From: an uncultured Thermoplasmata archaeon
GTDB taxonomy: Archaea > Thermoplasmatota > Thermoplasmata > Lutacidiplasmatales > UBA184
DNA: 64,000 nucleotides
Direction: 5' to 3'
NCBI GenBank assembly: GCA_963787975.1
Contig: CAWBEU010000007.1
Coordinates: forward strand, 429,926-493,925
Of the stretch, positions 23,751 to 47,089 are shown one piece after another. A program made the translations under genes and the position numbers. Numbering within the stretch: position 1 is the stretch's first letter; every line of letters starts with the position of its first letter. The notes beneath the pieces are model-generated. The model did not search any database and had not been told where the DNA came from. It was given only the letters and a program-made list of their open reading frames with translations.

Positions 23751-23849
23751 GGGTTCGAACCAGTCCGGGCGCTGGTTTTCGCCCTATCCTCCCCCCCCTG
23801 ATATAGCCTCGCTCGCGGGGAAACCGAGGTCGTTTCCGGCCGCGGATTC

Positions 23850-25436
23850 TATACGGGTGCAGAGAGTTGCGCCGGCGCGCTGCCGCCGCTCCGGGCTGCG
23901 TTCCAATCCGCCAGGATGATCTGGGCCGCGTTGTGGCCCGGAGCGCCCAAGACCCCGCCCCCTGGATGGGTAGCGCAACCGCACAGGTAGAGCCCCGGAA
24001 GGGGGGTACGGGTACGAGGTCCAGCCCGGGACCGGCCGGAAGGAGAACAGCTGGTCCGGCGTGATGTCGCCCTGGTCGATGTTCCCCCCGGTCATCCCCA
24101 GGAGGTTCTCGATGTCCTGCGGGGTCACGACCTGCCAGTGCAGGACGGTTTGCCGGATGTCTGGCGCGTACTCCTCGATCGTATCGAGCACGGTCTCGGC
24201 CACGTGGGACCGGGCGTCATTCCAGTCCATTCCCCGAAGCTCCGTGGGCGCATACTCCACGAAGCACGTCATCGTGTGCTTGCCCGGGGGCGCGACGGAC
24301 GGGTCCAGGATGCTCTGGTGGTAGATGTCGATGTACGGCCGGTGAGAGAAGCGTCCATACTTCGCGTCATCGTAGGCCCGCTCGAGGTAGTCCATCGACG
24401 GGGCGATGTCGAGCGCCCCCGCCAGGCGCGAGGGGTCGGCGGCGGCCCGATAGTGCGGGAGCCGGTCCAACGCCGCGTTGAACTTGAGGCAGGCCCCCTC
24501 GTTCCGGATCTTCTTCACCCGGAGACGGAATCCCAGGTCCACGGCATCTTCTGGTAGCAGTCGAAAGAAGGTCTGCTTGAGGTCGAGGGAGGAGACGATG
24601 ATCGGCGCCCGATGGACCTCCCCGGTCTCCGTCTCGACCCCGACGGCCCGACCCGCCTCGACCAGGATCCGCCGCACGCCGGCGCCGGTCCGGATCTGCG
24701 CGCCGTAGTGCGTCGCGGCTCGGGCCATCGACTGCGTGATGTTCCCCATGCCCCCCTCGGCGATCCCCCAGATCCGGCGGTGACCTTCCAGGATCCCCAC
24801 GCTGTTGTGGGCGAGGATGTAGGCCGTGCCCGGCGTCCTCGGGCCCGCCAAGGTCCCGATGATCGACCCGGAGGCGAGGACGCCCTTGAGCTCCTCCGAC
24901 TCGAACCAGCCGTCCAACAGGTCGGCGGCGCTCTGGAGAAACAGGTCCTTGAGCACCTGCTGGGGGTCGCTCCCCGTCCAGTGGCTCAGCATCTCTCCGA
25001 GCGGCACCGGAGGGGCGAGGAGGATCGGCTCGATCTGGTCCATGATACCGTCCCACCAGGCGAGGTACTTGGGATAGGCCTCGGCGTCCTTCTTCGAGAA
25101 CCGGGCGATCTCCTTCTCGGTCTTCTCCTCGTTCACCCAGAAGGTCAGCGAACGGCCGTCGGGGAATGGCGCGAACCCCTGCGGGTCGCACAAGATCGGC
25201 CGGTAGCCGAACCGCTTGAGCTCGAGCTCCTCAACGATCTTCGGCCGCAGCAGTCCCGCGGCATACCCGAAGGTGCTGAGGCGGTAGCCCGGCCACGGCT
25301 CCTCCGTGACGGAGGCGCCCCCGACGATTCCGCGCTTCTCGAGGACCAGCACGCGCGCGCCGGCCCGGGAAAGGTAGCCTGCCGTGACGAGGCCGTTGTG
25401 CCCCGCGCCGACCACGATCGCGTCGAACTCGGCCAT
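23850..25436 (-). CDS. PYROXD2/CrtI-like FAD-dependent (amine-oxidase fold) oxidoreductase, paralog 1; +1 frameshift near 23990-24000
   Basis: [16 protein letters not shown] Rossmann start. The frame breaks at GWTSY|[30 protein letters not shown]: an extra C in taccc-g shifts the conserved C-terminus into another frame, with stop near 23850. Confidence 0.75.
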
Positions 25437-25484
25437 CGCTCGACTCCCTGTCCTCCGGGGGTTCCCTCTCGGCGGATCCCCGTT

Positions 25485-26663
25485 CTACTCGTGCGGCTCG
25501 CCGACGAGACCCATCTGGCGGAGGTAGTACTGGTCGATGGCGTGGACGGTGTCTTCTTCGGTGCTGTACCGGCCCTGGTCGTAGGCGATGGTCTTCGACC
25601 CGAGGTGGGCCATCTCGCAGATGTGCCAGTCCTGGCGGTTCGTCGTCTCCCAGAAATCCATCGCGTCCGCGGCCGGGTCCGGCTCGTCTCGGTCGACATA
25701 CAGGTCGAAGATCAACCGGGTGCGCTCGGGGCCCATCGGCTGGAACCAGTCCATCGTGACATAGTCCGTTGAGAAAGCTATGAAATTGGCCGGGAACAGC
25801 ACGTAGTAGTAGACCCGGCGCAGGTCCTCGGCGGAGAGCGCCGGGAACCTCTTCCGGTCACTCTTCCCGTTGGCCGTGAGGGTCTCGGCGCCCTCGACCA
25901 TGTCCATCCAGCCGCCGAAGATCGGGCCTCGATGGATGTCCTCCTCGCCAGAAGTGTAGGGAGTGATCTTCACCAGTTGAGGGTGGACCCCCGGGCAGTG
26001 GTAACACTCGTTGGCGTTCTGGAGGACGAGTTTCCAGTTCGCGTTAATGTCGTAGACGACGCGGTGGGCCCGACGGAGCCGCTCGAGGGGGAACGGACGC
26101 GCGCGCTCGACGAGGGCGCCCAGATGGTCGGAAAGTGGAGCCGGGGTCGGGTCGAGGTTCACCCAGAGGAAACCGCGCCAGGTCTCGAGGGCCACCGGGT
26201 GGAGCCCATAATCGCGCTTGTCGAAGTTCTCGACACCGGTCATGTGCGGGGCTCCGCGTAACTGGCCCGCGAGGTCGTACGTCCAGGCGTGGTACGGACA
26301 CTGGATATTCGAGAGACCGGTTCCGAGATTCTCCTCCACGAGCCGGGTTCCCCGGTGCCGGCACACGTTATGGAAAGCGCGAAGGAAGCCCTCCTTGTCG
26401 CGCACGATCAGCACGCCCGACCCGCCGACCTCGACGGTCAGGAAGCCGCCCGCTCCCGACACCTCGTCCTCCCGGCCGACACAGGTCCAGGTGCGATGGA
26501 ACATCCGACGGAGTTCCTCCGCGTAGAGCGTAGGGTCGGAGAACATCCAGCCGGGCAGCGTGGCCGCCTCCTTGAACGGCCGGTCGACCGCCCGGAGGGC
26601 AGCGGATGTGGGGCGGTCCCGCCCCGGGGGACTGGGGACCGAGGGTCGGGCCGCGGTGCTCAT
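25485..26663 (-). CDS. Rieske [2Fe-2S] non-heme-iron aromatic-ring-hydroxylating oxygenase, alpha subunit
   Basis: CRHRGTRLV...CPYHAWTY is the Rieske CxH-(15-17)-CxxH motif. The C-terminal catalytic domain carries the mononuclear-iron ligands (NECYHCPGVH). Confidence 0.8.
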   Translation of the reverse strand: MSTAARPSVPSPPGRDRPTSAALRAVDRPFKEAATLPGWMFSDPTLYAEELRRMFHRTWTCVGREDEVSGAGGFLTVEVGGSGVLIVRDKEGFLRAFHNVCRHRGTRLVEENLGTGLSNIQCPYHAWTYDLAGQLRGAPHMTGVENFDKRDYGLHPVALETWRGFLWVNLDPTPAPLSDHLGALVERARPFPLERLRRAHRVVYDINANWKLVLQNANECYHCPGVHPQLVKITPYTSGEEDIHRGPIFGGWMDMVEGAETLTANGKSDRKRFPALSAEDLRRVYYYVLFPANFIAFSTDYVTMDWFQPMGPERTRLIFDLYVDRDEPDPAADAMDFWETTNRQDWHICEMAHLGSKTIAYDQGRYSTEEDTVHAIDQYYLRQMGLVGEPHE

Positions 26664-26672
26664 TCGACCTCC

Positions 26673-27905
26673 CTAGGGGGTGTGGCGCCCCATCTGGTCC
26701 TGATAGTACGCGTCGAAATCCCACACAAGTGTCTCCTGCTCGCTGTACCGGCCCCCGTGCCAGTTCCGGCTCTGAGTGCCCTTCTGTGCGAGCTCGCACA
26801 CGTGCCAGTCCTGTCGATTGATGATGTCCCAGAGCCCGACGGCGTCGCTGGGGTCGAAGTCCGGTTTCGCCATCACGGCGGGGTCGAAGTAGAACTCGTT
26901 CTCGACCCGCGTTCGACCGGGCGAGATCGGCCAGCCTTTGTGCACCATCAGGTAGTCGGGGTGCAGGCTGAAGAACGTGTTCGGCCAGAGAACGTAGTAG
27001 TAGATCCGCTTCCGGTCCTCCTCGGTCATGCCGGGGAGCGGCGGCCGGCGGGTATAGCCGGTCATCGTCATCGACGTGTAGTCGCCCGCGAAGGTCTGGT
27101 ACCCGCCGGAGAACTGTCCCTTCCCCTCCGTGAAGAACGCGTCATTGTCCCCCGTCATGTACGGGGTGATCCGGTTCAGCTCCGGGTGGATCGGCGCGCA
27201 GTGGTAACATTCCGAGTAATTCTCGACGAGAAGCTTCCAGTTCGCCTCGATCGTGTAGGTGTGCGTTGGGCCGGCGCGGAGTTGGGCGAGCGGAAAACGG
27301 GCGACGCGGTCGAGGAAGGGGCCGAGCTGGTCTGTGAGGGACCCGCCGTTCGGGTCGAGGTTCACCCAGAGAAATCCGGCGGCGCTCTCGACGCGGACCG
27401 GGAACAGTCCGTTGTCCTCCTTCCGGAACCCCTGAACGGCTTGCATGTGCCCGGCGCCGTTGAGGCGCCCGTCGAGGCCGTACGTCCACGCGTGGTACGG
27501 GCAGACGATGGACCGGAGTCCCGAGCCGCAGGGTTCCTCGAGAAGCTGGGTCCCCCGATGCCGGCAGACGTTCTGGAATCCTCGGACCTGCCCCTCCTTG
27601 TCCCGGAGGAGCATGATGGCCTCCGTCCCGATGGTCCGGGTCAGGTAGTCGCCGGTCTTCGGGATCTGCTCCTCGCGGCCGACGAGGAGCCAGTTTCGAT
27701 AGTAGAACCGGTTGAGTTCGGTTCGGAACACGGCCTCATCCCAGTAGACGTGGCCATCCGGGGTCGTACCGGAAAGGTGTCCCGTCGGGTCGCCCGGGTG
27801 CACCCCCTTCCGTCCGTTCGCGAGCGCCGACATTGTCCCAACAGGACCGGCCCGCGCATAAAAACTTGGCGCCAGAGCGGGTATAGACCCCGTATTTCGA
27901 TACAC
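26673..27905 (-). CDS. Rieske non-heme-iron oxygenase alpha subunit (second tandem paralog)
   Basis: CRHRGTQLL...CPYHAWTY Rieske motif. Catalytic region SECYHCAPIHPEL. First gene of the pair downstream of an AT-rich promoter island. Confidence 0.8.
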   Translation of the reverse strand: MYRNTGSIPALAPSFYARAGPVGTMSALANGRKGVHPGDPTGHLSGTTPDGHVYWDEAVFRTELNRFYYRNWLLVGREEQIPKTGDYLTRTIGTEAIMLLRDKEGQVRGFQNVCRHRGTQLLEEPCGSGLRSIVCPYHAWTYGLDGRLNGAGHMQAVQGFRKEDNGLFPVRVESAAGFLWVNLDPNGGSLTDQLGPFLDRVARFPLAQLRAGPTHTYTIEANWKLLVENYSECYHCAPIHPELNRITPYMTGDNDAFFTEGKGQFSGGYQTFAGDYTSMTMTGYTRRPPLPGMTEEDRKRIYYYVLWPNTFFSLHPDYLMVHKGWPISPGRTRVENEFYFDPAVMAKPDFDPSDAVGLWDIINRQDWHVCELAQKGTQSRNWHGGRYSEQETLVWDFDAYYQDQMGRHTP

Positions 27906-27999
27906 TTAGGCGCTCTATCCTTTGGATTGAACCCGCAAGCCTCAGTGCAGTACCGGGCTGCTGTTAGCCTACCTCGGGGGTTCTATTGCCTATGTCACG

Positions 28000-28135
28000 T
28001 ATGAGCGGTAAATAGACCATTTTAGATGCGAAAAATAGCGATTATGTACTGAAATATTCCGTTTCGGACAGAAACCGGAACCGGAACTGTTCCGAAGGTG
28101 ACCGATTTGGAACGGATTCGCGGACGGAAATCGCC
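28000..28135. promoter_or_regulatory. AT-rich island with clustered GGAAC/GTTCC and CGATTT/AAATCG dyad elements upstream of the Rieske oxygenase pair
   Basis: ggaactgttcc is a perfect palindrome. ttccgtttcgg...gaaaccggaaccggaac and cgatttggaacggattcgcggacggaaatcg show dyad symmetry. Local GC drops sharply relative to the window. Confidence 0.4.
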
Positions 28136-28173
28136 GGCCCGCCGCCGGACCACGACGGCTGAGGTCGGTTCGC

Positions 28174-29610
28174 TCAGCCCCGCCGCAGGGCGGATTCGAC
28201 CGCGTCGAGCCCGGCGTCGAGCGTCTCCTGCTCGATCGTGAGCGGGGGCTCGATGCGAACGACGTGGTCACCATAATTCCACAGCGGGATCGTTCCGTTC
28301 TGGACGCAGTCCCGGAAGACCCGTCGACCCAACTCCGCATGGGCCTTCCGGGAGCGTTTGTCCTTGACCAGCTCTATGCCGAGGCAAAGGCCCAGACCGC
28401 GCACCTCGCCCACGTTCGGAAGACGCTCCCACTCCTTCATGCGCTTGAGGGCGGCGGCGCCGAGCCGGGCCGATCGTTCGGGGATCTTGTCCCGTCGCAG
28501 TATCTCGAGGGTCTTGCTGGCCGCCGCACAGGCGGCCGGGTGCCCCGCGAAGGTCGTGCCCGCCGCGACCATCGCTTCGCCCATGACCTCCTCCGTGCCC
28601 ATCACCGCGGCGATCGGCATCACTCCGCCCGAGATCCCCTTCCCGATTGCCATCAGGTCAGGGGCCACCCCGAAATGCTCGATCGCCCACATCTTGCCGG
28701 TGCGGCCGAGGCCGGTCTCGACCTCGTCGTCGATGAAGAACCAGTCGTGGGTCTCGCACAGCTTGGCCAGCCCTCGAACGAACTTCGCGGGCGGGATCCA
28801 GATGCCGGCCTCGCAGGCGATCGGCTCGAAGATCACCCCCGCGATCCGGTCGGGTTCTGCCTGCCGCCCGAGGATCTGCTCCTCGATGTACTCGAGTACC
28901 CAGTCCCCGTACTCCTCCTCGCTCATCCCGCGTGGACGCCGGTAGGGAAACGGGTACGGGGCGTGCAACGCGCCGCCCCCCCACGCTTCCCAATATTTTC
29001 GCTCATGGGAGCTGAGGCTGCCGATCAGGTTCGCGCCGATAGAGAGTCCGTGATATTGTCCCAGAAAACTCAAGATCAGCGGTCGGTGACTGGCTTCGAC
29101 CGCGTGCTTCACGGCACCTTCCGCGGCGCCGGTGCCGGAGAGTTCCAGGAAGACCCGGGAGAGATTGGGGGACGGCCGGTTCTCGATCAGCCTCTCGGCC
29201 AGCTCGATCATCGGCAGGTGGGGCGTCATGAAGTACGTCAGGAACCCGTATCGGCGGAGCGCCTCCACGGTCACGTCCAGGACCTCGGGCGGAACGTTCC
29301 CGAGGTTGTTCGTCGCCCATTGGCTCGTCAGGTCGATGTACGTCTTGCCGGAGGTGTCGCGGACCGTCGAACCTGTCGCCCCCGTGACGATGATGCTCGC
29401 CAGGCGGGTTTCTTCCGACCAGAAATACCGGGGAAAGAGTTCTTGGTATCGTGCCCAGTAGTCCGTGCCTTCGCCCTTCCCTCGGCGAGCGGGCGTTCGG
29501 TGGGCCGGCATCGGCGGGCCGAGCCGGAGGGGGCCTTTGTAGATTCCGCCGGGATGGCGGCGTCCCATTGACGCGGGAAAGAGCGTCTCGCGTGGCCCGT
29601 CCCGCGACAT
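28174..29610 (-). CDS. Class-III PLP aminotransferase
   Basis: The GHPAACAAASKTLEIL, FFIDDEVETGLGRTGKMWAIEHFGVAPD and LSGTGAAEGAVKHA motifs match the class-III fold. Start possibly an internal Met. Confidence 0.8.
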   Translation of the reverse strand: MSRDGPRETLFPASMGRRHPGGIYKGPLRLGPPMPAHRTPARRGKGEGTDYWARYQELFPRYFWSEETRLASIIVTGATGSTVRDTSGKTYIDLTSQWATNNLGNVPPEVLDVTVEALRRYGFLTYFMTPHLPMIELAERLIENRPSPNLSRVFLELSGTGAAEGAVKHAVEASHRPLILSFLGQYHGLSIGANLIGSLSSHERKYWEAWGGGALHAPYPFPYRRPRGMSEEEYGDWVLEYIEEQILGRQAEPDRIAGVIFEPIACEAGIWIPPAKFVRGLAKLCETHDWFFIDDEVETGLGRTGKMWAIEHFGVAPDLMAIGKGISGGVMPIAAVMGTEEVMGEAMVAAGTTFAGHPAACAAASKTLEILRRDKIPERSARLGAAALKRMKEWERLPNVGEVRGLGLCLGIELVKDKRSRKAHAELGRRVFRDCVQNGTIPLWNYGDHVVRIEPPLTIEQETLDAGLDAVESALRRG

Positions 29611-29699
29611 GAGCCAGCCCTTCCCATCCCGCCCCCTGTCCGGCCAGAAGGGGCCGAGCCGGGGGACGATCTCCTCTTAGGGCCCGCGTGGACGCGCGC

Positions 29700-31371: not shown

Positions 31372-31442
31372 CCTTTCCCATCCCGCCTTCTATCCCGTCT
31401 GAGAGAACAGCACCCGACGGTATTCTCGCGTGCCGGCGGGGG

Positions 31443-33105: not shown

Positions 33106-33955
33106 ATGGACCCGATCCTGCTCGGGGTCCCGTGGGACGCCACCACTCTCGGTCGCAAGGGGGCTCGCCTCGCACCGGCCGCTATTCGGGAGGAGCTTCG
33201 GCGCCGGCTTCACCCGTACGACGCAACTGCAGGTCGGACGGTTCGTTGGGAGGATGCGGGAGACGCATCCATTGGTCCCACCCACGACGAGATGCTCGAG
33301 GGCGTGAGCGCCGCCGTGTCCGACCGGTGGAAGGCGGGTGCCCGACCGGTGATCGGTCTCCTCGGCGGCGACCATGCCGTCGCGTACGCCGGGATCCGGG
33401 CGGTCCGGCGCCTTCTTTCCGAATCTCATGGTCATTAGCCTGGATTCGCACCTCGACCTGCGGCCTCGAGACCAGGGCCCGTCCAACGGAAACTGGGCGC
33501 TTCGCATGATCGAGGACTTTCAACGGCCGCTGGTGGAGTTCGGCCGAGGACGTTTCTCGAATGACGAGGAGTTGTTTGAGACGGCCCGGAAGGGGGGCGT
33601 CCACCTCGTGTCCGCGAGCGATCTCCGTCGGCAAGGGGTGTCGCGGGCGGTGGAGCCGGTGGAGGCGACGACCCGGAAGGATCGCGACGTGTGCCTGTCC
33701 ATCGATATCGACGTGGTCCACCAGGCGGCCGCTCCGGGTGCGACCGCTCCATCGGTGCATGGTATCCCGGTCGAGGACCTCTTGGACCTTCTCGATTGGG
33801 CCTCCCGGCGGTTCCGCGTGCGGGCCTTCGACGTCTGCGAGGTCAACCCCCCAGTCGACCCGACCGGGGTGACTGCTCGACTGGCCGGCTACGTAACGCT
33901 GAGCCTCCTGTCGGGACTCGCCCCGGCGGCTGGGAGATCCCCCGCCGGAACCTGA
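33106..33955 (+). CDS. Arginase/agmatinase/formiminoglutamase-family ureohydrolase, with frameshift near 33395-33415
   Basis: ILLGVPWDATTLGRKGARLAPAAIR and GGDHAVAY are in the frame of ORF 32962. PNLMVISLDSHLDLR and SIDIDVVHQAAAPGATAPSVHG (Mn-binding DAHxD and SxDxDxxDP motifs) are in the frame of ORF 33374. Confidence 0.65.
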
Positions 33956-37044: not shown

Positions 37045-37066
37045 GACTCCCCGCGCCGGCGGGTCC

Positions 37067-38563: not shown

Positions 38564-38721
38564 ACGAATCGCCGGGGAGCGCCAGCCCGCCACGGTAAAA
38601 GATGTTATCCCAGGGAAACCGTCCTATCGCCCTCTCACCGTTGGGGAGTGGCGCCCGGGCCCCCATCCTAGGGTTTAAGAACGGGGTCCCCCTCTTCGCG
38701 CCGACCGTTGGGAGGGGTTCG

Positions 38722-40701
38722 ATGGATCCCCGTTCTATCCGAATTGCTGCTGTGGTCGTCGCGGTGCTCACTGCGTTGTCGGCCAGTGGAGCGTATTACG
38801 GGCTGAGCCGGGCGGCTTCCCAGGCGGCTACGTGCTCGCTCTCGACCACGAACTCTATCGTGATCGACCAACCCGAGGTGCCCGACTCGCTCGACCCGGC
38901 CGTCACCTACACTACCCCAGGCTGGGGCGTCGTCCAGCAGGTCTACCAGACCCTGATTTTCTACAATAATACCCAGTACGGTCCTTCGTCTGCGGGACTC
39001 TCCACGCCCGTCTACCAGGTCCCGCTCCTCGCGAAGAACTGGACCACCTCCCCGGACGGCACCCACTGGAACTTCACTCTCTTCCCCCACGAGTACTTCT
39101 CGAACGGGGATCCGATCAACGCCTACGTGATGTGGTACTCCCTCTACCGCGGCATGGTGATGAACCAGCCCCTCTCGTATCTCGAGGACGAGAACTTCTT
39201 CCTGCCGGGGCTCATCTACGACAACGATTCCTTTACTCCGGCCGAGCTGGCTAGCCAGAACTGGATGGACGGGGTTCTGAGCTCGATGAACACACTCGCC
39301 ATCGTGAACAGTCCACCCTCGAGCCTGATGGCCATCATGACGGCCCACAACCAGTCCTTCCAGGTCATCAACGAGTCGACGATCGAGTTCAATATCGGCG
39401 CCGGTTCGGTGGATTACAATGGCCCGGCCCCAGCCACGTTCCTGCTCGACCAACTTGCGACACCCGGATTTGCGGCCGTCGACCCGCTCTGGGTGGCTGC
39501 CCATGGTGGAATACCGGTCAACCAAGCGAACAGCTACACCTCGAACAACATGATGGGCAGCGGGCCGTACACCCTCACCTTCTGGTCCCCGTCCACAGGG
39601 TATACGCTGGCTCCGAGCAAGAACTACTGGGCCCAGTCGATCGCGAGCCAGTATCCGAGCGCCAACAATATGCAACCCGCCAAGAGCTCGATCGATGTCT
39701 CCTTCCAGCAGAATCCCACGATCGTGGTGGAGAACATGCAGACCGGCGCCGCTGCGCTGGGGTCGTTCGCCTACATCGGCCCCTCCCAGATCAACGAGCT
39801 CAAGGGGCAGAAGTGCTTGGTCGTCCACGCGCTCCCCCCCGTGTTTGGCGGGCTCAGCTTCTCCGGCTGGATCTACATGGACCAGAACGCCTCGACCTTG
39901 CCGGGGGAACCGATCAATCCGTTCGCGAACCTCTCCGTCCGCGCGGCCGTCGTCCACGCCATCAACTACACCAAGATCATCTCGATCGGTTTCGGTGGCT
40001 ACGGGACCAACTGGGTCGGGCCCATTCCGGCCGGCTTCCCCGACTACAACCCCACGAACCTGCCGAACTATACCTACAACCTTCCGCTCGCGGAGCAGGA
40101 GATGGACAACTCTCCTTGGCCGATGTCGGGCGGGGGGCTCAACCATCTGTTCCCCAATGGGATCAATTTCGAGTATCTTCAGACCGGTGACTGGAACACT
40201 GTCGCCCAGTTGCTCAAGACCAGCCTGGCGGCGGTCGACATCCCGCTCAATCTCGTTCCGATGAGCATCGACCAGCTGGTCGAGGAGCAAACCCAGGAAA
40301 GTTATGGCGGCCTGCCGACGGTGTGCATTTCTCAGACACCGGCGAACAACGGACCATTCTACATCGGGCTCGATTACTACACCGGCGACTACGTGGGCCC
40401 CGACGACCCCACGGAGCTCAACGCGTGGGGCCTGGGCGGCTACAACCTCTGCATGTCCGAGTTCAACAGCCCTGCCGTCAACCAGTGGTTCTACCAAGCT
40501 GCGGAGGCACCGACCGTGGCGGCGGCCGCGCAGTACTACGGCGACATCACGAACTACATGTACTACAATTACACGGACGCCTGGCTCGTTATCCCGACCT
40601 CCTTCCAGGTCTACAACGTGGGCGTCCAGGGCATTGAGGCGAACCCGATGGGCAGCGGGATCGGGTTCCAGCTGCTCTACAACACGGATTATCTGACGTG
40701 A
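38722..40701 (+). CDS. ABC transporter substrate-binding protein, family 5 (peptide/nickel), membrane-anchored
   Basis: ATG at 38722 (MDPRSIRIAAVVVAVLTALSASGAYYG) preceded by ggagggg. Paralog of 21837..23750 and rich in N-x-S/T sequons. Confidence 0.8.
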   Translation: MDPRSIRIAAVVVAVLTALSASGAYYGLSRAASQAATCSLSTTNSIVIDQPEVPDSLDPAVTYTTPGWGVVQQVYQTLIFYNNTQYGPSSAGLSTPVYQVPLLAKNWTTSPDGTHWNFTLFPHEYFSNGDPINAYVMWYSLYRGMVMNQPLSYLEDENFFLPGLIYDNDSFTPAELASQNWMDGVLSSMNTLAIVNSPPSSLMAIMTAHNQSFQVINESTIEFNIGAGSVDYNGPAPATFLLDQLATPGFAAVDPLWVAAHGGIPVNQANSYTSNNMMGSGPYTLTFWSPSTGYTLAPSKNYWAQSIASQYPSANNMQPAKSSIDVSFQQNPTIVVENMQTGAAALGSFAYIGPSQINELKGQKCLVVHALPPVFGGLSFSGWIYMDQNASTLPGEPINPFANLSVRAAVVHAINYTKIISIGFGGYGTNWVGPIPAGFPDYNPTNLPNYTYNLPLAEQEMDNSPWPMSGGGLNHLFPNGINFEYLQTGDWNTVAQLLKTSLAAVDIPLNLVPMSIDQLVEEQTQESYGGLPTVCISQTPANNGPFYIGLDYYTGDYVGPDDPTELNAWGLGGYNLCMSEFNSPAVNQWFYQAAEAPTVAAAAQYYGDITNYMYYNYTDAWLVIPTSFQVYNVGVQGIEANPMGSGIGFQLLYNTDYLT

Positions 40702-40723: not shown

Positions 40724-41821
40724 CTACGCTGCGGTCGTCCCCACGAGGTGGCTTCCCGGCGCGATCGGCGACGGGGCCCCGCTCCCTTCCATGGCCATCA
40801 GGGTCTCTGGCGGGATGTCGACCACCTCCTCGGCGCGGTGGCAGGCCGCCAGGTGGGTCGGGTCCTTGCCAATGCTCCGGAGGAGGGGCTCCTCCACCCG
40901 GCACCGGTCGATGACGAACGGGCAGCGCGTGGCGAACCGGCAGCCCGGCGGGGGCCGGATGAGCGTCGGGATCTCCCCCGAGATCCGGAATCGGGCCCGC
41001 CGGCGCCGGACGTCCGGCACCGGCAGCGCCGCCAGGAGCGCCTTGGTGTAGGGATGGGTCGGATGCTCGAGTACAGCGCGGACGGTCCCGACCTCGGCCA
41101 GCTTCCCCAGGTAGAGGACCGCCACCCGGTCGGCAACGTACTTGACGGCCGAGACGTTGTGCGTGATCAGGAGGTACGCGAAGCCGAACTCGGACTGGAG
41201 CGCGACCAGCCGGTTCAGGATCTGGGCCTGCACGGCGACGTCCAGCGCGCTCGTCGGCTCGTCGAGGACGATGAGCTTGGGACGCAAGCTCAGCGCCCGC
41301 GCCAGGGAGAGCCGCTGCCGCCCGCCACCGGAGAACTCGTGGGGGTACTGGTCGAGGATCTCCGGCATCAGCCCGACGGTCGGAAGCAGCTCCGCGACCC
41401 GCCGGCGGAGCTCCGCTTTCCGGAGACCGGGCTCCTGGGCCCGGATTGGCTCGCTCACGATCTCCCAGACCCGCATGCGCGGGTCGAGCGACCCGACCGG
41501 GTCCTGGAACACCACCTGGACGTTCCGGCGCCATGCGCGGAGCTTCGAGCCCTGGAGGTGGGCTACGTCCTGTCCCTCGAACAGTATCCGGCCGCTGGTC
41601 GGCTCGTGGAGCCGGGAGATGAGCCAGCCGAGCGTGGTCTTGCCGGAGCCGGACTCGCCGATGAGGCCCACGGTCTCGCCGGGGCGAACGTCGAAAGAGA
41701 CGCCGTCCACGGCCCGGATCGCGAGCTTCGCGTGGCCCCGGATCGTTTCGCTGAGCGACCGCGTGAGCGGGAAGTATTTCTGGATATCCTCGACCTGAAC
41801 GAGGGGTTGGGCCGCGCTCAT
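40724..41821 (-). CDS. ABC transporter ATP-binding protein, DppF/OppF-like
   Basis: Walker A GLIGESGSGKTT, signature FSGGGRQRLSLARAL, Walker B LIVLDEPTSALD. C-terminal oligopeptide-ABC extension. Confidence 0.85.
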   Translation of the reverse strand: MSAAQPLVQVEDIQKYFPLTRSLSETIRGHAKLAIRAVDGVSFDVRPGETVGLIGESGSGKTTLGWLISRLHEPTSGRILFEGQDVAHLQGSKLRAWRRNVQVVFQDPVGSLDPRMRVWEIVSEPIRAQEPGLRKAELRRRVAELLPTVGLMPEILDQYPHEFSGGGRQRLSLARALSLRPKLIVLDEPTSALDVAVQAQILNRLVALQSEFGFAYLLITHNVSAVKYVADRVAVLYLGKLAEVGTVRAVLEHPTHPYTKALLAALPVPDVRRRRARFRISGEIPTLIRPPPGCRFATRCPFVIDRCRVEEPLLRSIGKDPTHLAACHRAEEVVDIPPETLMAMEGSGAPSPIAPGSHLVGTTAA

Positions 41822-42966
41822 GGCATCGACGGAACCTCGTCCGGGAAGAAGCAGGCCGACTTGTGGACCTCGCCCATGGGGCCGGGGGGCAGTGCCGCGA
41901 GCGGCGGTTCGGGGTTCTTTCGGCAGACGTCGCGCACCATCGGGCAGCGCGGGTTAAAGGAGCATCCGTCGGGTAACTTGGCGAGGTTCGGCACCGACCC
42001 CGATAGAGACGGGAGGACGCCTTCGTCCTTGTACTTGTTCGGGATCGAGCGGAGAAGGGACTTCGTGTACGGGTGCCGGGGGGACTCGAAGATCTCGGCG
42101 ACCGGGCCGAACTCCACCATGTGACCCGCGTACATCACGCCGACGTCGTCGGCCATCTCGGCGATGACGCCCAGGTCGTGGCTGATGAACATGATGGAGG
42201 TCCGCACCTCCTCCATCAACTCCTTCATCAGCGTCAGTACCTGCGCCTGGATCGTCACGTCGAGCGCGCTGGTGGGTTCGTCCGCGATGAGGAGGGCGGG
42301 CTTCCCGCTCAGCGCCATGGCGATCATGATCCGCTGGCGCATGCCGCCCGACAGCTCGTGCGGGAAGAGATTCACGATCCGCTCCGGGTCGTTGATCCGG
42401 ACGAGCCGGAGGAAATCGAGGACCTCGGCGTGGATCTCCTTCGTCATCGGCGGGCCTCGCGTCTTCAGGGTCTGGGTCACGTTCGGCGGGATGAACGGGC
42501 CCGTGACGACCTCCGAGGCCTTTGGAAGCTCCCGCTTCGAGTAGTCGAAGCCCGTAACGTCGGGCTTCACACGCGGGGTGAGGCCCCGCTCGCGCATCTT
42601 CCGTATCCGCACGGATTCGGCGATCTGGTCGCCGACCTTGTAGGCCGGGTTGAGGGAGTTGATCGGTTCCTGGAAGATCATGCCGATACCCGTGCCGCGG
42701 ACCCCGGGCATCCGCCACTTCGGGAGCTTCAGCAGGTCGGTGCCCTCGAAGATGATCTTGCCGGACTTCACCCTCGCGGGCGGCTCCGGCAGCAGCCGGG
42801 GGATCGAATGACCGAGGGTGCTCTTCCCACAGCCGGTCTCCCCGACGACGCCCACCACCTGGCCGGGCAACAGCTCGAGGGAGACGTCCTTGAGGGCATG
42901 GAACGTGCCGGCGCCCACCGCGTAGTCGACGGAGAGATGCTCGATCCTCAGTAGCGCGTCGGCCAA
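41818..42966 (-). CDS. ABC transporter ATP-binding protein, DppD/OppD-like
   Basis: Walker A GVVGETGCGKST, signature LSGGMRQRIMIAMAL, Walker B LLIADEPTSALD. ATGA overlap with the downstream ATPase gene. Confidence 0.85.
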   Translation of the reverse strand: MADALLRIEHLSVDYAVGAGTFHALKDVSLELLPGQVVGVVGETGCGKSTLGHSIPRLLPEPPARVKSGKIIFEGTDLLKLPKWRMPGVRGTGIGMIFQEPINSLNPAYKVGDQIAESVRIRKMRERGLTPRVKPDVTGFDYSKRELPKASEVVTGPFIPPNVTQTLKTRGPPMTKEIHAEVLDFLRLVRINDPERIVNLFPHELSGGMRQRIMIAMALSGKPALLIADEPTSALDVTIQAQVLTLMKELMEEVRTSIMFISHDLGVIAEMADDVGVMYAGHMVEFGPVAEIFESPRHPYTKSLLRSIPNKYKDEGVLPSLSGSVPNLAKLPDGCSFNPRCPMVRDVCRKNPEPPLAALPPGPMGEVHKSACFFPDEVPSMP

Positions 42967-43008
42967 CGGATCACCTCCCTCCCGAGCGCGAGACGAGAGC
43001 AGGGGAGG

Positions 43009-44034
43009 TCATGGACGTTCCGCCTGGCCCGAGGCGGCGGCGGTCGTGGCCATGATCCGGCGGCTGCGGGGGTCGAGGATGTCCCGCAGGCCGTCTCCGA
43101 GGAGGCTGAACGCGAGTACGGTGATGAAAATCGCCGCCGTGACGGACAGGACCGTCCACGGCTGGGTGAGCAGCGAATCCTGGTAGGAGTACATCAGGTT
43201 GCCCCACTCGGGGATGGACGGGGGGACCCCGACGCCGACGTACGAGATGGTCGAGTAAGTGACGATGACCGTGCCGACGTCAAGGCTGAAGTACACCGCG
43301 AGAGGCTCCAGCAGGTTCCGAACGACGTGCCGGAACAGGATCTTGCTCTCGGAGACCCCGGCCGCCCGCGCCGCGATGACGTACGGTTGGACCTTGATAG
43401 ACAGCACCTCGCCGCGGGTGAGGCGCACGTAGAACGGCCACCACGTAACAATGACGGCGAGCTCCGACTGGATCTCCCCACGGCCCCACGCCGCCGTGAT
43501 CGCCAGGGCCAGCACCAACGTCGGGAAGGAAAGGAAGATATCCGTCACCCGAAGGATCGCCACCGAGCCAGCCGCCGACAGGGTACCGGGCGTGTCCCAG
43601 AAGCCTGCTACCAAGCCCAGCAGGCTCCCGATGATCAGGGAGATTCCGGCGACGCTGAAACCGATCCCGAGGTCCGTCGGGAGCGCGGTCATCACGTTCG
43701 AGAACACGTCCTCGCCCGCCGCATCGGTGCCGAAAAGGTGGGTGGCCGAGGGTGACTGGCCCACGGGAAACACCCCTGCGTCGAGGGCAGGGTACGGAAG
43801 GATCGAAACGGAATGGCCCAGGATGAGCAGCGACACGGCGGGGACCGCGACGATGAGAGCGGCGGCAACGGAGACGAGCACGACGAGGATGAACCCGACG
43901 AGGGTCAGCGGATTCGCGGCGAGGATCCGCAGGATCAGAAGGATGTTGGCCCAGAGCCGGCCCCGGGGACGTGCGGGAACGACGGAGCCGGAAGCGCCAG
44001 CGGCTTGCGTGGCCGGAACGGTGGCGGTGGCCAT
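43009..44034 (-). CDS. ABC transporter permease, DppC/OppC-like
   Basis: 341 aa, paralog of 19466..20512. Confidence 0.8.
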   Translation of the reverse strand: MATATVPATQAAGASGSVVPARPRGRLWANILLILRILAANPLTLVGFILVVLVSVAAALIVAVPAVSLLILGHSVSILPYPALDAGVFPVGQSPSATHLFGTDAAGEDVFSNVMTALPTDLGIGFSVAGISLIIGSLLGLVAGFWDTPGTLSAAGSVAILRVTDIFLSFPTLVLALAITAAWGRGEIQSELAVIVTWWPFYVRLTRGEVLSIKVQPYVIAARAAGVSESKILFRHVVRNLLEPLAVYFSLDVGTVIVTYSTISYVGVGVPPSIPEWGNLMYSYQDSLLTQPWTVLSVTAAIFITVLAFSLLGDGLRDILDPRSRRIMATTAAASGQAERP

Positions 44035-45057
44035 CTAGCGCCACTCCACCCGGGGATCGAGGACCCCGTACAGCACGTCGGAGATGAGGTTCGCCACGAC
44101 CACCACGACGGCGAAGAAGATCACGACCCCGATCGTCCCTGCGAAATCGTACCCGGTAATCGCATCGTACGCGTATTCGCCGAGGCCGGGCCACTTGAAG
44201 ACCGACTCCACCACGACGGTTCCCGAGACCATCGTCCCGACCGTCACCCCCAGCACCGTGGTCGTCGTGATGAGGGCGTTCCGGAGCGCATGCTTGTAGA
44301 GAACCCAGAACTCGCCCAGTCCCTTCATCCGGGCCGTCTTGACAAATTCGAGCGGAAGGATCTCGAGCATCGACGTGCGGGTCATCCGGGTCGCGATGCC
44401 CATGTTGATGAAGGCGAGGGCTACCGCGGGAAGGAGCAGGTGCTCCAGCGCATCGGCCGTGGCCCCAGCGTTCAGGGCGATGATCGAGTCAATGACCGAC
44501 ATATGCGTAATGAGCGGCACCGGCGAGGCGGGGGTCGAGAAGGCGCCTCCGCTCACGCCGAGCAGGGGCCCCAAACCTATCGCCAGCAACACCCCCGCGA
44601 TGTAGGTCGGAGTCGCCCACCCGCTCAGGTAGAAGATTCGCACCACGTGGTCCGCGATCCGCCCGTTGCTGGCCGCCGCGACGACGCCCAGCGGGATGCC
44701 AACGAAGATCATCATCGCGGCGGCCGTGAGGACCAGCTCGAGGGTCTCGGGGAAGGTCGCGAGCAGGTACGGAAGGACGGGCGTGTGGAAGAGCGGGTCC
44801 GTGCCCCAGTTCCCGCTGAGCAGGCCTTGGAGGTAGTAGTAGAACTGGACGGGGAGCGAGTCGTCGAAGTGGTTATTCTTCACGCACGCGGCGATGGTCG
44901 AGGGAGAGGCCTTCGGACCCGACCAGATAGCGCAGGGGTTAGAGACCGCGATGTGCGTGAAGAAGAACGTGATGACGATGACGCCCAGGAGAACGGGGAT
45001 GAGTTGGACAAGGCGCTTCGCGACGAAGACGATCAGGTCGCTACGCGAACGGCCCAT
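44035..45057 (-). CDS. ABC transporter permease, DppB/OppB-like
   Basis: 340 aa, paralog of 18413..19465 (LIVFVAKRLVQLIPVLLGVIVITFFFTHIAVSNPC). Confidence 0.8.
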   Translation of the reverse strand: MGRSRSDLIVFVAKRLVQLIPVLLGVIVITFFFTHIAVSNPCAIWSGPKASPSTIAACVKNNHFDDSLPVQFYYYLQGLLSGNWGTDPLFHTPVLPYLLATFPETLELVLTAAAMMIFVGIPLGVVAAASNGRIADHVVRIFYLSGWATPTYIAGVLLAIGLGPLLGVSGGAFSTPASPVPLITHMSVIDSIIALNAGATADALEHLLLPAVALAFINMGIATRMTRTSMLEILPLEFVKTARMKGLGEFWVLYKHALRNALITTTTVLGVTVGTMVSGTVVVESVFKWPGLGEYAYDAITGYDFAGTIGVVIFFAVVVVVANLISDVLYGVLDPRVEWR

Positions 45058-45064
45058 CTAGTGT

Positions 45065-45145
45065 CGGACCCCCCACGGGTTGGGGGCTAAGAACCCTTTC
45101 TCGGGGCTCGGAGCCCCTATCGGCTCCCGAGGGGGCTGAGAAGGG
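45065..45145. terminator. Cluster of GC-rich dyad symmetries (ccccccacgggttggggg; ggggctcGgagcccc; ctcccgagggggctgag) between the cupin stop and the permease operon start
   Basis: Palindromes read directly from the sequence. Position is 3' of the cupin / FAD-oxidoreductase unit. Confidence 0.3.
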
Positions 45146-45149
45146 GGGA

Positions 45150-45500
45150 CTACGGGGGGTCCGGTGACTCTTGCGGGGCGAAGACCACGAGGAGTTCGAG
45201 CGGCTCCGTCACGGAGTGGAAACGGTGGTCGACCCCCTTCGCCACGAAGATCGTCTCGCCCGGTTCAACGGGATAGTCCCGGCCGGCAATGGTGATCGCG
45301 GCCCGGCCGCGGATGACGTAGTATATCTCGTCCTCCCGGTGGGGAGTTTGCGGGTCCACCCCTCCCGCGTGCAGCGCGTAGAAACCCACGCTCATCGCAG
45401 GGATCCGAAGGAACTCGAGGTAAAGCCCCCCGGACGCTTTCCGGCGGGCCTGGATCTCCGAAAGCCGAAACACTGCCGAGTCCTTGGGGCGCGACGTCAT
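45150..45500 (-). CDS. Cupin-domain protein (116 aa)
   Basis: Only the C-terminal 116 codons of track ORF 45150..46562 look real. MTSRPKD...HAGGVDPQTPHREDEIYYVIRGRAAITIAGRDYPVEPGETIFVAKGVDHRF is the cupin two-motif pattern. The ATG abuts the corrected stop of the upstream oxidoreductase. Confidence 0.7.
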   Translation of the reverse strand: MTSRPKDSAVFRLSEIQARRKASGGLYLEFLRIPAMSVGFYALHAGGVDPQTPHREDEIYYVIRGRAAITIAGRDYPVEPGETIFVAKGVDHRFHSVTEPLELLVVFAPQESPDPP

Positions 45501-45501
45501 C

Positions 45502-47089
45502 TCAGCTCCCCGACGAAGGAGGGGACGGCGTGGCGCCCGACGTCCTGCGCCAGTCCTCCAAGATGATCTGGGCGGCGTTGTGACCGGCGGCACCCGTGAC
45601 CCCGCCGCCGGGGTGGGCGGCCGAACCGCAGAGGTACAGGCCGGGCAGAGGGGTCCGGGACCTGCACCCACCCCGGCACAGGCCGGAAGGAGAGGATCTG
45701 GTCCGGCGTGATATCTCCCTGGAAGATGTTGCCGCCGGTCATCCCGAGGGTGCTCTCGATGTCCTTCGGCGTGACAACCTGCCAGTGCTCGACGACCCGC
45801 CGGATGTTCGGGGCATACTCCGCGATCGTATCCAGCACCCGCTCCGCCGCGGTGCTCTTGTAGGAATCCCAGTCGGTCCCGCGCAGCTCCGTCGGGGCGT
45901 ACTGGACGAAACAGGTCATCGTGTGCTTCCCCGGGGGAGCGACGGACGGGTCGAGCGCGCTCTGGAACAGCATCTCGATGAACGGCTGGGAGGAGAACCG
46001 GCCCTCCATGGCGTCGCGGTACCCCCGCTCGAGATACGCCAGCGACGGGGCGATGTCGACGGTCGAGCGATGGGCATCGCTCGGAGCGCCCGGGTCCGCC
46101 GTGAACTCCGGTAGCGCGGACAGCGCCGCATTGAACTTGAGGGCGGCGCCCCGGGAACGGATGCCCCGAACCTCCTTCTCGAACTCCGGGGAGAGGGAAC
46201 CGGGGGGCGCCAGCTTGAGGAACGTGGTCTGGGCGTCGGCGTTCGACGCCACGATCGGGGCCGAGATCGTCTCGCCCGACACCGTCTCGACCCCCGTGAC
46301 GGCCCCGTGCTGGACCACGAAGTTCTTTACGGCTACTCCGGTGCGAATCTGAACGCCGTTCGCGACGGCGGCCCGGGCCAGCGCCTGGGTGATCCCGCCC
46401 ATCCCGCCCACGGAGAACCCCCAGACTTGCTTGTGCCCATCGAGGTTGCCCACGTTGTGGTGGGCGAGGACGTAGGCGGTGCCGGGGGTGCTGGGACCGC
46501 ACATCGTTCCAATGACGGCGTTGGGCGCGAGGACGGCCTTGACCTCGTCGGACTCGAACCACTCATCGAGCAGGTCCTGCGCGCTGCGGAGGAACAGGTC
46601 CCGGACCACGGTCTCGGTCTCGGGCGTGGAGAACATCTGAAACATCTCGGCCAGCGGCGCCGGCGGGGCCAGCATCACCGGCTCGATCAGCTCGAGCACG
46701 CGGTCCCAATACTCGACGTACTTCGGATAGGCGCGAGCGTCCTGCACGGAGAATTTGGCGATCTCCTTCGCCGCGCGCTCCGTGTCGACCCACAGCTTGA
46801 GGGCCCGGCCGTTCGGAAACGGCATGCAGTACTGCGGGTCGTAGAGGATCGTGCGATACCCATACTTTGGGAGCTCGAGGTCGTCGACGATCTCCTGGCG
46901 CATCAATCCCGCCACGTAGGAGAAGGTGTTGATCTTGAACCCGGGCCACGTCTCCTCCGTGATCGCCGCGCCACCCACCACGGGCCGTCGTTCGAGCACG
47001 AGGACGCGGGCCCCCGCCCGTCCGAGATAGTTGGCTGCGACCAGTCCGTTGTGGCCCCCGCCGACTACGACGACGTCCCACTGGCTCAC
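45502..47089 (-). CDS. PYROXD2/CrtI-like FAD oxidoreductase, paralog 5; +1 frameshift near 45610-45616
   Basis: [16 protein letters not shown] start. The frame breaks at GWVQV|[36 protein letters not shown] (extra C in gtccc-gg), the same alignment position as in paralog 1. The corrected stop falls at about 45502, directly before the cupin ATG. Confidence 0.75.

Follow-up and report, generated by a model that had tools for sequence, protein, structure and literature searches.

A possible amine-catabolic island with five PYROXD2-like flavoprotein paralogs in a soil archaeon of Ca. Lutacidiplasmatales

Described systems and the layout of the island

Among the known gene clusters closest to the locus described here are those for quaternary-amine catabolism by group V Rieske oxygenases, namely cntAB (carnitine), gbcAB/bmoAB with dgcAB or DMGO plus sox downstream (glycine betaine), and stc (stachydrine). 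Like our locus, they encode Rieske α3-type oxygenases with an E-C-x-H-C motif and no β subunit gene, combined with downstream flavoprotein steps and aldehyde dehydrogenases, and bacterial-type variants of the locus also share a THF-dependent aminomethyltransferase domain. A similar logic is seen in pauA-D/spuC/kauB of Pseudomonas and in Puu of E. coli, which couple several redundant flavoprotein paralogs to an aldehyde dehydrogenase plus an aminotransferase of class III, although PauB and PuuB are DAO-family enzymes and not PYROXD2-like. The function of PYROXD2 (pyridine nucleotide-disulfide oxidoreductase domain-containing protein 2), a mitochondrial protein in mammals, is still given as unknown (PMC8777681), in agreement with an initial reading of our DNA made without database searches (the sequence-only reading). 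In human genetics, levels of urinary trimethylamine, plasma dimethylamine and N2-acetyl-N6,N6-dimethyllysine are associated with its locus (mQTL; PMC3169529, PMC13352909), a correlative finding.

The window, a stretch of 64,000 nucleotides, comes from a soil archaeon of Ca. Lutacidiplasmatales (Thermoplasmata). Between 23.8 and 47.1 kb it contains five paralogous FAD oxidoreductases (P1–P5), all on the minus strand as the sequence-only reading had stated, and around them are found a pair of Rieske oxygenases, PLP enzymes of class III, aldehyde dehydrogenases (ALDHs), two saccharopine-DH-like genes (SDHs), a ureohydrolase, a cupin and two Opp-type ABC importers (Table 1). The neighbours listed in that reading were all recovered by Pfam: Rieske plus Ring_hydroxyl_A (two genes), Aminotran_3 (three), ALDH (two), Sacchrp_dh (two), Amidohydro_2 (two), arginase-family, Cupin_2, GGT and SBP_bac_5/Opp-type ABC genes. 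We give roughly even odds (about 0.5) to the reading that this part of the archaeon's chromosome is a conserved island for the catabolism of N-alkyl/N-methyl amines; the partner enzymes point towards breakdown of methylated or alkylated amines and offer a testable lead on the role of the PYROXD2 family.

The island differs from the group V clusters in several respects: it has no adjacent reductase (CntB/GbcB equivalent), its flavoproteins are PYROXD2/CrtI-like instead of DAO-type (DMGO, Sox) or DgcA-type, its two Rieske paralogs are in tandem and one has Ala at the Y203 position, its importers are Opp-type, its host is an archaeon, and the top NCBIfam match of both Rieske proteins, GbcA, scores 204–209 bits, far under the equivalog cutoff of 670. 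Compared with Pau/Puu, genes for the γ-glutamyl ligase and hydrolase (PuuA/PauA, PuuD/PauD) are absent by Pfam families and the GGT gene lies 17 kb off, which leaves the earlier suggestion of a Puu-type γ-glutamyl route unsupported.

Table 1 Features of the island and its flanks (window coordinates).
Feature	Position	Strand	Description
Class-III aminotransferase	16713-18335	+	then two ABC permeases (18413-19465, 19466-20512)
Saccharopine/carboxyspermidine-DH-like oxidoreductase	20540..21736	-	398 aa
SBP_bac_5 solute-binding protein	21837..23750	-	637 aa; downstream of P1
P1	23849..25436	-	PYROXD2-like FAD oxidoreductase, 528 aa corrected; extra C at 24010
Rieske A oxygenase	25485..26663	-	392 aa; group V E-C-Y-H-C motif, Ala at CntA Y203 position
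Rieske B oxygenase	26673..27833	-	386 aa; group V motif, Tyr at CntA Y203 position (Va-like)
Class-III PLP enzyme	28174..29511	-	445 aa; aminotransferase or racemase; P3's conserved partner
P2	29727..31305	-	PYROXD2-like FAD oxidoreductase, 526 aa corrected; one-base deletions at 30418, 29763
P3	31443..33002	-	PYROXD2-like FAD oxidoreductase, 519 aa, intact
Arginase-family ureohydrolase	33106..33955	+	282 aa corrected; divergent from P3; extra C at 33410
P4	33968..35571	-	PYROXD2-like FAD oxidoreductase, about 533 aa
Aldehyde dehydrogenase	35566..37053	-	about 495 aa; two compensating indels in window
Aldehyde dehydrogenase	37067..38593	-	508 aa, intact; aminobutyraldehyde/betaine-aldehyde DH type, 577 bits vs cutoff 615
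SBP_bac_5 solute-binding protein	38602..40701	+	699 aa
Opp/Dpp-type ABC importer	40724..45057	-	ATPases 40724-41821, 41818-42966; permeases 43009-44034, 44035-45057
Cupin_2 protein	45153..45500	-	116 aa; directly downstream of P5
P5	about 45502..47089	-	PYROXD2-like FAD oxidoreductase, 528 aa corrected; extra G at 45661
Class-III PLP enzyme, GSA-aminomutase-like subfamily	47123..48760	-	545 aa
Saccharopine-DH-like oxidoreductase	48954..50171	-	405 aa

The five paralogs belong to the PYROXD2 family

P1–P5 share 54–65% pairwise identity over ~520 residues, and their alignment has 149 invariant columns, including GxGHNGL and YR.P.PGLY.C...HPGGGV; such identity and invariance place their homology far beyond chance. 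Each represents a distinct, old subfamily. The true lengths of 519–533 aa bear out the lower end (about 520) of the earlier estimate and not its upper end (570), while the shared C-terminal motif is present as described, except that the copies in P1 and P5 are readable only across a frameshift. Each of the five combines a single dinucleotide-binding domain with a CrtI-like substrate domain. Over its full length (545 columns, 380 bits, E 1e-130), P3 has 40% identity to mouse PYROXD2, which upholds the PYROXD2-like assignment of the sequence-only reading, and the two sides have in common their HMM profile pattern and the motifs GxGHNGL, WFES..K and GLYLCG..HPGGGV..G.NAA. P1–P5 are thus true members of the PYROXD2 family, of which, to our knowledge, no member has a known reaction (a point against the amine reading). 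PYROXD2 occurs in eukaryotes as a single-copy gene and clusters with the single-copy bacterial clade (48% identity to an actinomycete homolog), whereas the archaeal paralogs form a separate clade of five subfamilies set within catabolic operons.

The paralogs are neither CrtI nor CrtO, and a profile-HMM check agreed with the view that these are not carotenoid desaturases: crtI_fam scores were 133–152 bits (cutoff 238), the CrtO model, although the top-scoring NCBIfam model, reached 272–314 bits (cutoff 1000), and crtB/crtY/crtE-type genes were not found among the ORFs scanned in the window. The fold is nevertheless that of CrtI, CrtD and CrtO, the nearest solved structure being the carotenoid 3,4-desaturase 4rep (TM 0.80/0.84), with CrtI 4dgk also close, while MAO-type amine oxidases are farther (TM 0.55–0.62), which counts against the amine reading. 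Both fold and HMM therefore place the enzyme nearer CrtD/CrtI/CrtO than MAO-type enzymes, and the label of amine-oxidase fold used earlier is not supported. Unlike the carotenoid systems, the island has a context of amine and amino-acid catabolism.

In the window sequence P1, P2 and P5 are out of frame, a feature that the sequence-only reading did not mention. The arginase-family gene, an ALDH gene (35566–37053) and an ABC ATPase gene (53333) are likewise broken, as would be expected of a decaying array in which these three paralogs and their broken neighbours are pseudogenes. As a reference we used contigs JBAURQ010000154.1 and JBAURQ010000126.1 of the public assembly GCA_049581265.1, which are 99.93–99.95% identical to the window and carry the genes that they cover intact, with P1, P2, P3 and P5 at 528, 526, 519 and 528 aa. 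The breaks that they cover are all single-base indels, and the four indels in the region matching L004 fall within or beside C runs. Because these one-base differences stand against intact genes in a near-identical assembly, the covered breaks are, on this sequence comparison, assembly errors and not pseudogenes; the two compensating indels in the ALDH gene, placed by comparison with orthologs, lie outside the coverage of the reference contigs. GC3 is coding-like (0.84–0.88 in four paralogs, 0.78–0.79 in P4 and the P2 N-terminal ORF) and other MAGs carry intact orthologs, which makes decay of the array exceedingly improbable.

Conserved modules and linkage to group V-type Rieske genes

The closest solved structures to Rieske A and B are CntA (9e-41) and Stc2 (5e-38). 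Both proteins show two features reported for group V, a bridging Glu and a Cys-X-X-Cys pair (PMC10952381). In Rieske B and its orthologs a Tyr or Phe stands where CntA has Y203, the residue that makes the π-cation contact with the quaternary ammonium group (PMC7948474). By these residues both bear the signatures of group V (quaternary-amine oxygenases), Rieske B being Va-like and Rieske A a variant.

Synteny of the partner enzymes, when checked, was conserved in related Thermoplasmata MAGs as distinct modules: P1 with both Rieske genes, an SBP and an SDH; P3 with a PLP enzyme; P4 with both ALDH genes; and P5 with an SDH, a PLP enzyme, the cupin and ABC genes. Orthologs of P1 (61–88% identity), at eight genome loci (L006, L015–L019, L021, L023) plus L001 and L086/L087, invariably have Rieske B, Rieske A and the SBP at their sides, and usually the SDH too. 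P3 and its PLP enzyme occur together in seven loci and P4 with two ALDH genes in three, while SubAcS15-31 keeps the P5 module and the entire island order. The sequence-only reading had paired P2 with the aminotransferase at its side; this pairing is not conserved, as the enzyme belongs with P3. Between these two, P2 forms a lineage-specific insertion, missing from this site in the closest relatives (L002, L006, L021), where its ortholog is located elsewhere. Similarly, P3 is divergent from the arginase-family gene in the window as described, but the latter is variable and absent in L021; its NCBIfam scores (HutG 138, agmatinase 114) are both under cutoff. A geranylgeranyl reductase gene (GGR) at 56.7 kb is part of a separate conserved block.

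PYROXD2-like and group V-like Rieske genes are repeatedly linked, both in archaeal genomes and in soil contigs of bacterial type that are unrelated. Of 80 metagenome loci found with a Rieske query, 12 have the two side by side (6 among the 28 loci that extend at least 2 kb either way). These loci show at least four gene orders, most commonly cupin-GCV_T-FAD-FAD2-Rieske-PLP decarboxylase and Rieske/GCV_T/FAD/FAD2. The island cupin is 52–56% identical to that of the bacterial operons. The nearest match to the GCV_T protein is the THF-binding half of TMAO demethylase, followed by GcvT and SoxA, and proteins of these types are the one-carbon acceptors of N-demethylases. Its linkage was found only in bacterial-type contigs; the lack of a GCV_T gene in the window and the archaeal loci counts against the amine reading, as does the finding that in 59 of 61 bacterial loci the PYROXD2-like homolog is a single gene that lacks neighbours from any of the partner families.

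A candidate amine route and competing explanations

In the proposed scheme, organic nitrogen compounds would be imported via the two Opp-type ABC systems and then cleaved at C–N bonds. The group V Rieske oxygenases may attack an ammonium centre that is quaternary or alkylated in some other way, after which P1–P5 would oxidise N-methyl/N-alkyl amine intermediates, the saccharopine-DH-like enzymes would cleave secondary amines, the class-III PLP enzymes would remove primary amino groups and the ALDHs would oxidise the released aldehydes. We infer C–N bond oxidation by the PYROXD2-like flavoproteins, this order of steps and the substrate class from family membership, the conserved modules, the group V-type Rieske residues, the Rieske/GCV_T linkage in independent loci, the PYROXD2 mQTLs and the ALDH type. 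The assignment of the committed oxidation to the flavoenzyme in the sequence-only reading is not supported, and for the first step the group V Rieske oxygenases are candidates of equal or greater merit.

Two features that count against the amine reading would suit a general peptide and amino-acid catabolic island, with Opp-type oligopeptide uptake and no special N-methyl role, in which the flavoproteins would be deaminating or desaturating dehydrogenases of amino acids or their derivatives, the PLP enzymes racemases or transaminases, and the Rieske proteins side activities. The importers are Opp/Dpp-type (SBP_bac_5) and not of the betaine or polyamine binding-protein types, and the best solved relatives of the PLP enzyme beside P3 include archaeal amino-acid racemases. 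A giant S53 protease, GGT and GNAT lie upstream, S9 and M14 peptidases and amino-acid permeases adjoin the bacterial operons, and Lutacidiplasmatales have been described as peptide/amino-acid heterotrophs with a peptide/nickel ABC system (PMC9287336). We nevertheless hold a peptide island to be unlikely, as it leaves unexplained both the tight, recurrent link to a group V-type Rieske with the quaternary-ammonium Tyr/Phe and the linkage to a THF aminomethyltransferase, and ordinary amino-acid oxidases and dehydrogenases are of other flavoprotein families.

The missing reductase, a further point against the amine reading, allows another role for the PYROXD2-like proteins, which might be not substrate oxidases but the reductases of the Rieske oxygenases, or might directly couple reduction of the Rieske centre to the oxidation of another substrate. 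Around the Rieske genes, reductase genes of FNR or ferredoxin type were found neither in the archaeal island nor in the bacterial operons, and their constant neighbour is a PYROXD2-like gene. This seems rather improbable, since four of the five window paralogs and most family members, PYROXD2 included, have no Rieske neighbour, the proteins have neither an Fe-S nor a second NAD(P)H domain, and reductases are frequently encoded at other genome sites. It is very unlikely that the flavoproteins act as CrtI/CrtO-type desaturases or ketolases on isoprenoids or lipids and cluster with amine genes incidentally in a paralog-rich variable region, even though the nearest folds and best NCBIfam model are of this type and the region is fluid, as P2 and the arginase-family gene witness. 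Scores fall well short of the CrtI and CrtO cutoffs, carotenoid/isoprenoid pathway genes are absent alongside (GGR being in its separate block), the module structure persists in relatives with as little as 61% identity, distant contigs of bacterial type show the family-level linkage again, and the start of P4, for which CTG is the sole plausible codon, overlaps the stop codon of the adjoining ALDH gene.

Gene content, integrity and conservation of the array

The window has a G+C content of 66%, and a dense gene set was picked out from it by codon-position composition. The sequence-only reading had placed five FAD oxidoreductase paralogs (P1-P5) in one array among catabolic partner genes, and both parts of that description stood: P1-P5 share 149 invariant columns at pairwise identities of 54-65%, and Pfam scans of the ORFs confirmed the surrounding inventory (see table below). 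No sixth PYROXD2-like copy was found when the window was searched for one. Some of the partner annotations stay at family level, those of the SDH-like enzymes among them, with the arginase-family protein falling between the HutG and agmatinase models under the cutoffs of both, and the PLP enzyme ('aminotransferase') next to P3 being equally close to archaeal amino-acid racemases and GABA transaminases. An identity for the cupin was sought in the PDB, where the matches, DMSP lyases among them (E about 2e-3), were too weak for use.

Features of the window, with the flavoprotein island in minus-strand order (SDH, saccharopine-DH-like; SBP, SBP_bac_5 solute-binding protein; GGT, gamma-glutamyltransferase; GGR, geranylgeranyl reductase)
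Feature	Position (nt)	Strand	Place or basis
SDH	48954-50171	minus	first in order; Pfam
Class-III PLP enzyme	47123-48760	minus	between SDH and P5; Pfam
P5	~45502-47089	minus	Pfam
Cupin_2		minus	after P5; Pfam
Four Opp-type ABC genes		minus	after Cupin_2; Pfam
SBP		plus	between ABC genes and aldehyde dehydrogenases; Pfam
Two aldehyde dehydrogenases		minus	before P4; Pfam
P4	33968-35571	minus	Pfam
Arginase-family gene		plus	between P4 and P3; Pfam
P3	31443-33002	minus	Pfam
P2	29727-31305	minus	Pfam
Class-III PLP enzyme		minus	after P2; Pfam
Rieske B	26673-27833	minus	tandem with Rieske A; Pfam
Rieske A	25485-26663	minus	tandem with Rieske B; Pfam
P1	23849-25436	minus	Pfam
SBP		minus	after P1; Pfam
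SDH		minus	end of order; Pfam
GGT	5390-6883		17 kb from array
S53-type protein	7708-12144		1478 codons
N6_N4 DNA methylase domain ORF	12145-13926	plus	
Antisense ORF	12096-13499	minus	
Two Amidohydro_2 paralogs	14978-16818		tandem
Flavin reductase/ferredoxin/GGR block	55042-58131		
DUF1028 + PG_binding_2 protein	58602-59903		

Several island genes are broken as they stand in the window. The reading frame of P1 and P5 is lost directly after 'PVPGW', so that their conserved C-terminal motif lies in another frame, the frame of P2 switches twice, and the arginase-family gene, one aldehyde dehydrogenase and an ABC ATPase are broken as well, probably along with further genes. A pseudogene reading of these disruptions was rejected by comparison with NCBI assembly GCA_049581265.1, two contigs of which carry the exact P3 protein and an exact permease. 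These contigs, the reference for our indel calls, span 21444-34724 (99.95% identity) and 40963-55059 (99.93%) and differ from the window by single-base indels and a few substitutions, each reference-covered disruption being a one-base difference; all four indels of the first span lie within or beside C runs. The reference versions of P1, P2, P3 and P5 are 528, 526, 519 and 528 aa long, and that of the arginase-family gene 282 aa. Since the differences are single-base indels relative to a near-identical assembly with intact genes, the island genes are to be treated as intact. The window's assembly derives from the same population as GCA_049581265.1 and is indel-prone and probably long-read, so that frameshifts and 'pseudogenes' read from it warrant distrust. 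The sites concerned (24010, 29763, 30418, 33410, 45661, 50905-50907 and 53333, and also 35566-37053) break at least seven genes.

The best matches were Thermoplasmata MAGs. Among named genomes the nearest is SubAcS15-31, a grassland-subsoil MAG of Ca. Lutacidiplasmatales with a 94% identical P3. The whole island occurs there in the same order, running from the GGR/ferredoxin block through SDH, PLP enzyme, P5, cupin, ABC genes and SBP to the two aldehyde dehydrogenases (ALDH), P4, the arginase-family gene, P3, PLP enzyme, two Rieske genes, P1, SBP and SDH. Association of the paralogs with particular partner enzymes also extends to more distant Thermoplasmata MAGs, in which the modules persist: Rieske B, Rieske A and SBP always accompany P1 orthologs (61-88% identity), and SDH usually does; a 445-aa PLP enzyme follows P3; and two ALDH genes precede P4. 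P2 is inserted between P3 and this conserved PLP-enzyme partner and is absent from that position in the closest relatives (SubAcS15-31, MFD09222.bin.1.10 and the related locus L002), while an 84% identical ortholog lies on another contig (L013/L167) between abhydrolase and esterase genes, with GNAT genes near. P4 has no ATG, GTG or TTG start, which leaves as the sole candidate a CTG that shares bases with the ALDH stop codon (GGCTGAGC, 35566-35571). This CTG is kept in two related loci (L021 and L022) and replaced by TTG in SubAcS15-31; the overlap suggests that ALDH and P4 are translationally coupled. A neighbour-joining tree unites all archaeal copies in a single clade divided into five old subclades. 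Overall, the array is genuine, and it is conserved and intact.

Family affiliation of the flavoproteins

The PYROXD2-like identity proposed for the paralogs was borne out by BLASTP, in which P3 aligned end to end with mouse PYROXD2 (40% identity over 545 columns, 380 bits, E 1e-130) and P1-P5 were each 39-42% identical to the mouse protein (P0224). The sequences used as PYROXD2 carry that name in NCBI/UniRef. Two signature motifs, GxGHNGL at the N-terminus and YR.P..GLYLCG..HPGGGV..G.NAA at the C-terminus, are invariant in the paralog alignment and identically aligned in the mouse protein, and PYROXD2 and the paralogs have a common HMM pattern. The family has no defined activity (PMC8777681). 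Bacterial homologs, present as single copies and 48% identical to mammalian PYROXD2, are widespread in soil bacteria without conserved context; across 61 such loci only lineage-local synteny was found (glgB upstream in 11 Acidobacteria loci), and thus these homologs offer no functional lead.

We considered whether the paralogs might instead be carotenoid desaturases or ketolases. The nearest solved structures by sequence are CrtI and a CrtD-like desaturase, and an AlphaFold model (pLDDT 87) matched 4rep with TM scores of 0.80/0.84, with CrtI second by E-value and no close characterised relative apart from CrtD/CrtI in the PDB fold search; the same model reached just 0.55-0.62 against MAO-type amine oxidases (NicA2, MAO, PuO). 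Matches to the flavin amine oxidase model PF01593 (MAO/PAO type) exceeded its gathering score (35-56 bits), and this model covers CrtI-like enzymes too. The carotenoid identity is contradicted by the curated HMMs, of which the best, the CrtO ketolase (NF045689), gave 272-314 bits against a cutoff of 1000 and crtI_fam (TIGR02734) 133-152 bits against 238.1, and by the carotenoid genes: no crtB, crtY or crtE was found in the related loci or among the ~50 coding-like ORFs scanned with Pfam, a set that omits a few short ORFs near the 3' end. Together with the homology to PYROXD2, these scores identify the paralogs, at the sequence level, as PYROXD2-family members and not carotenoid enzymes.

Rieske oxygenases and PYROXD2-like neighbours

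The two Rieske proteins, which are 43% identical to each other, have CntA (9e-41) and Stc2 (5e-38) as their closest characterised relatives in the PDB, with aromatic ring-hydroxylating oxygenases at 1e-28 or weaker, and their match to NCBIfam GbcA (2.5e-60, others about 1e-26) remains under the equivalog cutoff. Both carry the Rieske motif CRH..CPYH, together with ECYHCPGVH in Rieske A and ECYHCAPIH in Rieske B. As described for group V (PMC10952381), each has a bridging Glu, and a Cys-X-X-Cys pair adjoins the histidines of its mononuclear iron. CntA Y203 makes a pi-cation contact to the quaternary ammonium substrate (PMC7948474). The corresponding residue is Y or F in Rieske B and in every one of its orthologs (ENY/FSECYHC), and the Rieske proteins of the bacterial operons described below read QNYNECLHC, whereas Rieske A and its orthologs always have Ala (QNANECYHC) and so lack this feature of clade Va. 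Group V Rieske oxygenases usually have an adjacent reductase gene; no FNR- or ferredoxin-type gene of the CntB/GbcB kind was found in the archaeal or bacterial operons. A block elsewhere in the window, conserved in SubAcS15-31 (L166), encodes a Flavin_Reduct protein, a thioredoxin-reductase-like Pyr_redox_2 protein, a small 4Fe-4S ferredoxin (annotation taken from the syntenic L166) and GGR. It probably supplies electrons to GGR, and is the nearest candidate electron donor to the Rieske oxygenases.

With the Rieske proteins as queries, a metagenome scan yielded 80 loci, most of them 39-50% identical, and in 12 of these PYROXD2-like genes adjoin the Rieske gene, generally as a tandem pair. Two operon types recur in bacterial-type contigs of soil metagenomes (L100, 3610-10450; L128, 1264-8043; L146, 7887-13836; L110; L114; L105; L112): cupin-GCV_T-FAD-FAD2-Rieske-PLP decarboxylase and Rieske/GCV_T/FAD/FAD2, where GCV_T is an aminomethyltransferase, FAD the PYROXD2-like protein, FAD2 a second, divergent flavoprotein and Rieske a group V-like oxygenase. 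Their neighbours include amino-acid permeases, TonB receptors and S9/M14 peptidases, and the flanking TonB-dependent receptors and permeases indicate bacterial hosts. The nearest match of the GCV_T protein is the THF-binding half of TMAO demethylase, with GcvT and SoxA ranking next; no GCV_T gene was found in the window or the archaeal loci. The cupins of the archaeal and bacterial-type sets are 52-56% identical. A keyword search of the open-access literature found no description of the bacterial-type operon.

Functional readings and other genes of the window

Lutacidiplasmatales have been portrayed as aerobic or facultative heterotrophs on peptides, amino acids and sugars, in a paper that makes no mention of the island genes (PMC9287336). 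The sequence-only reading had likened the array to a Puu-type gamma-glutamyl route; this parallel found no support, as no scanned ORF matched Gln-synt or Peptidase_C26, the families sought for a gamma-glutamyl-amine synthetase (PuuA/PauA) and hydrolase (PuuD/PauD), and the sole gamma-glutamyl enzyme is the distant GGT. Oxidation of N-methyl or N-alkyl amines is, we infer, the most coherent reading of the Rieske signatures, the metagenome linkage, GCV_T, the cupin and the human PYROXD2 locus, at which strong QTL signals have been mapped for trimethylamine, dimethylamine and N2-acetyl-N6,N6-dimethyl-lysine (PMC3169529, PMC13352909). Counting against this reading, or unaccounted for by it, are the peptide-type importers of the island (Opp/SBP_bac_5), the Rieske genes having no companion reductase gene, the lack of GCV_T in the archaeal island, the closeness of the PLP enzyme next to P3 to racemases, and the family-level annotations of the arginase-family and SDH-like enzymes.

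From its gene content, the array is predicted to be a new variant of quaternary/alkyl-amine catabolic clusters, in which PYROXD2-like flavoproteins fill the role that DAO- or DgcA-type enzymes usually have. More tentatively (probability roughly 0.3), the PYROXD2 family, including the human mitochondrial member, may consist of oxidative N-demethylases or dehydrogenases of methylated amines (TMA/DMA, N-methyl-lysine-type). They would act after group V Rieske oxygenases that lack a reductase, or be electronically coupled to them, and THF would capture the one-carbon unit where a GCV_T partner occurs. On this view the five archaeal paralogs would together handle a range of N-alkyl amines. In soil archaea, the island would bring N-alkyl amine/betaine catabolism into a lineage so far portrayed as a peptide/sugar heterotroph only. 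What the proposal chiefly offers is a hypothesis, open to testing, for an orphan enzyme family with a human disease gene among its members. PYROXD2, a conserved flavoprotein without a known reaction, is tied to an infantile mitochondrial disorder, and its locus is among the strongest human metabolite QTLs. In archaeal genomes as in bacterial-type contigs, genes of the family neighbour those of quaternary-amine Rieske oxygenases, and the bacterial-type contigs add a THF aminomethyltransferase gene; these links give a concrete short list of substrates for testing.

Elsewhere in the window, a very large secreted-type protein has a pro-kumamolisin (S53 sedolisin) activation domain, with GGT (apparently C-terminally cut) and a GNAT gene upstream, which fits an acid-protease, peptide-feeding lifestyle. 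The ORF with the N6_N4 DNA methylase domain and a long ORF antisense to it overlap and are equally coding-like in composition; either may be the real gene. The two Amidohydro_2 paralogs share 54-55% identity, and the assembly seems to have truncated the first at its N-terminus. The DUF1028 protein carries a peptidoglycan-binding domain in a wall-less archaeal lineage.
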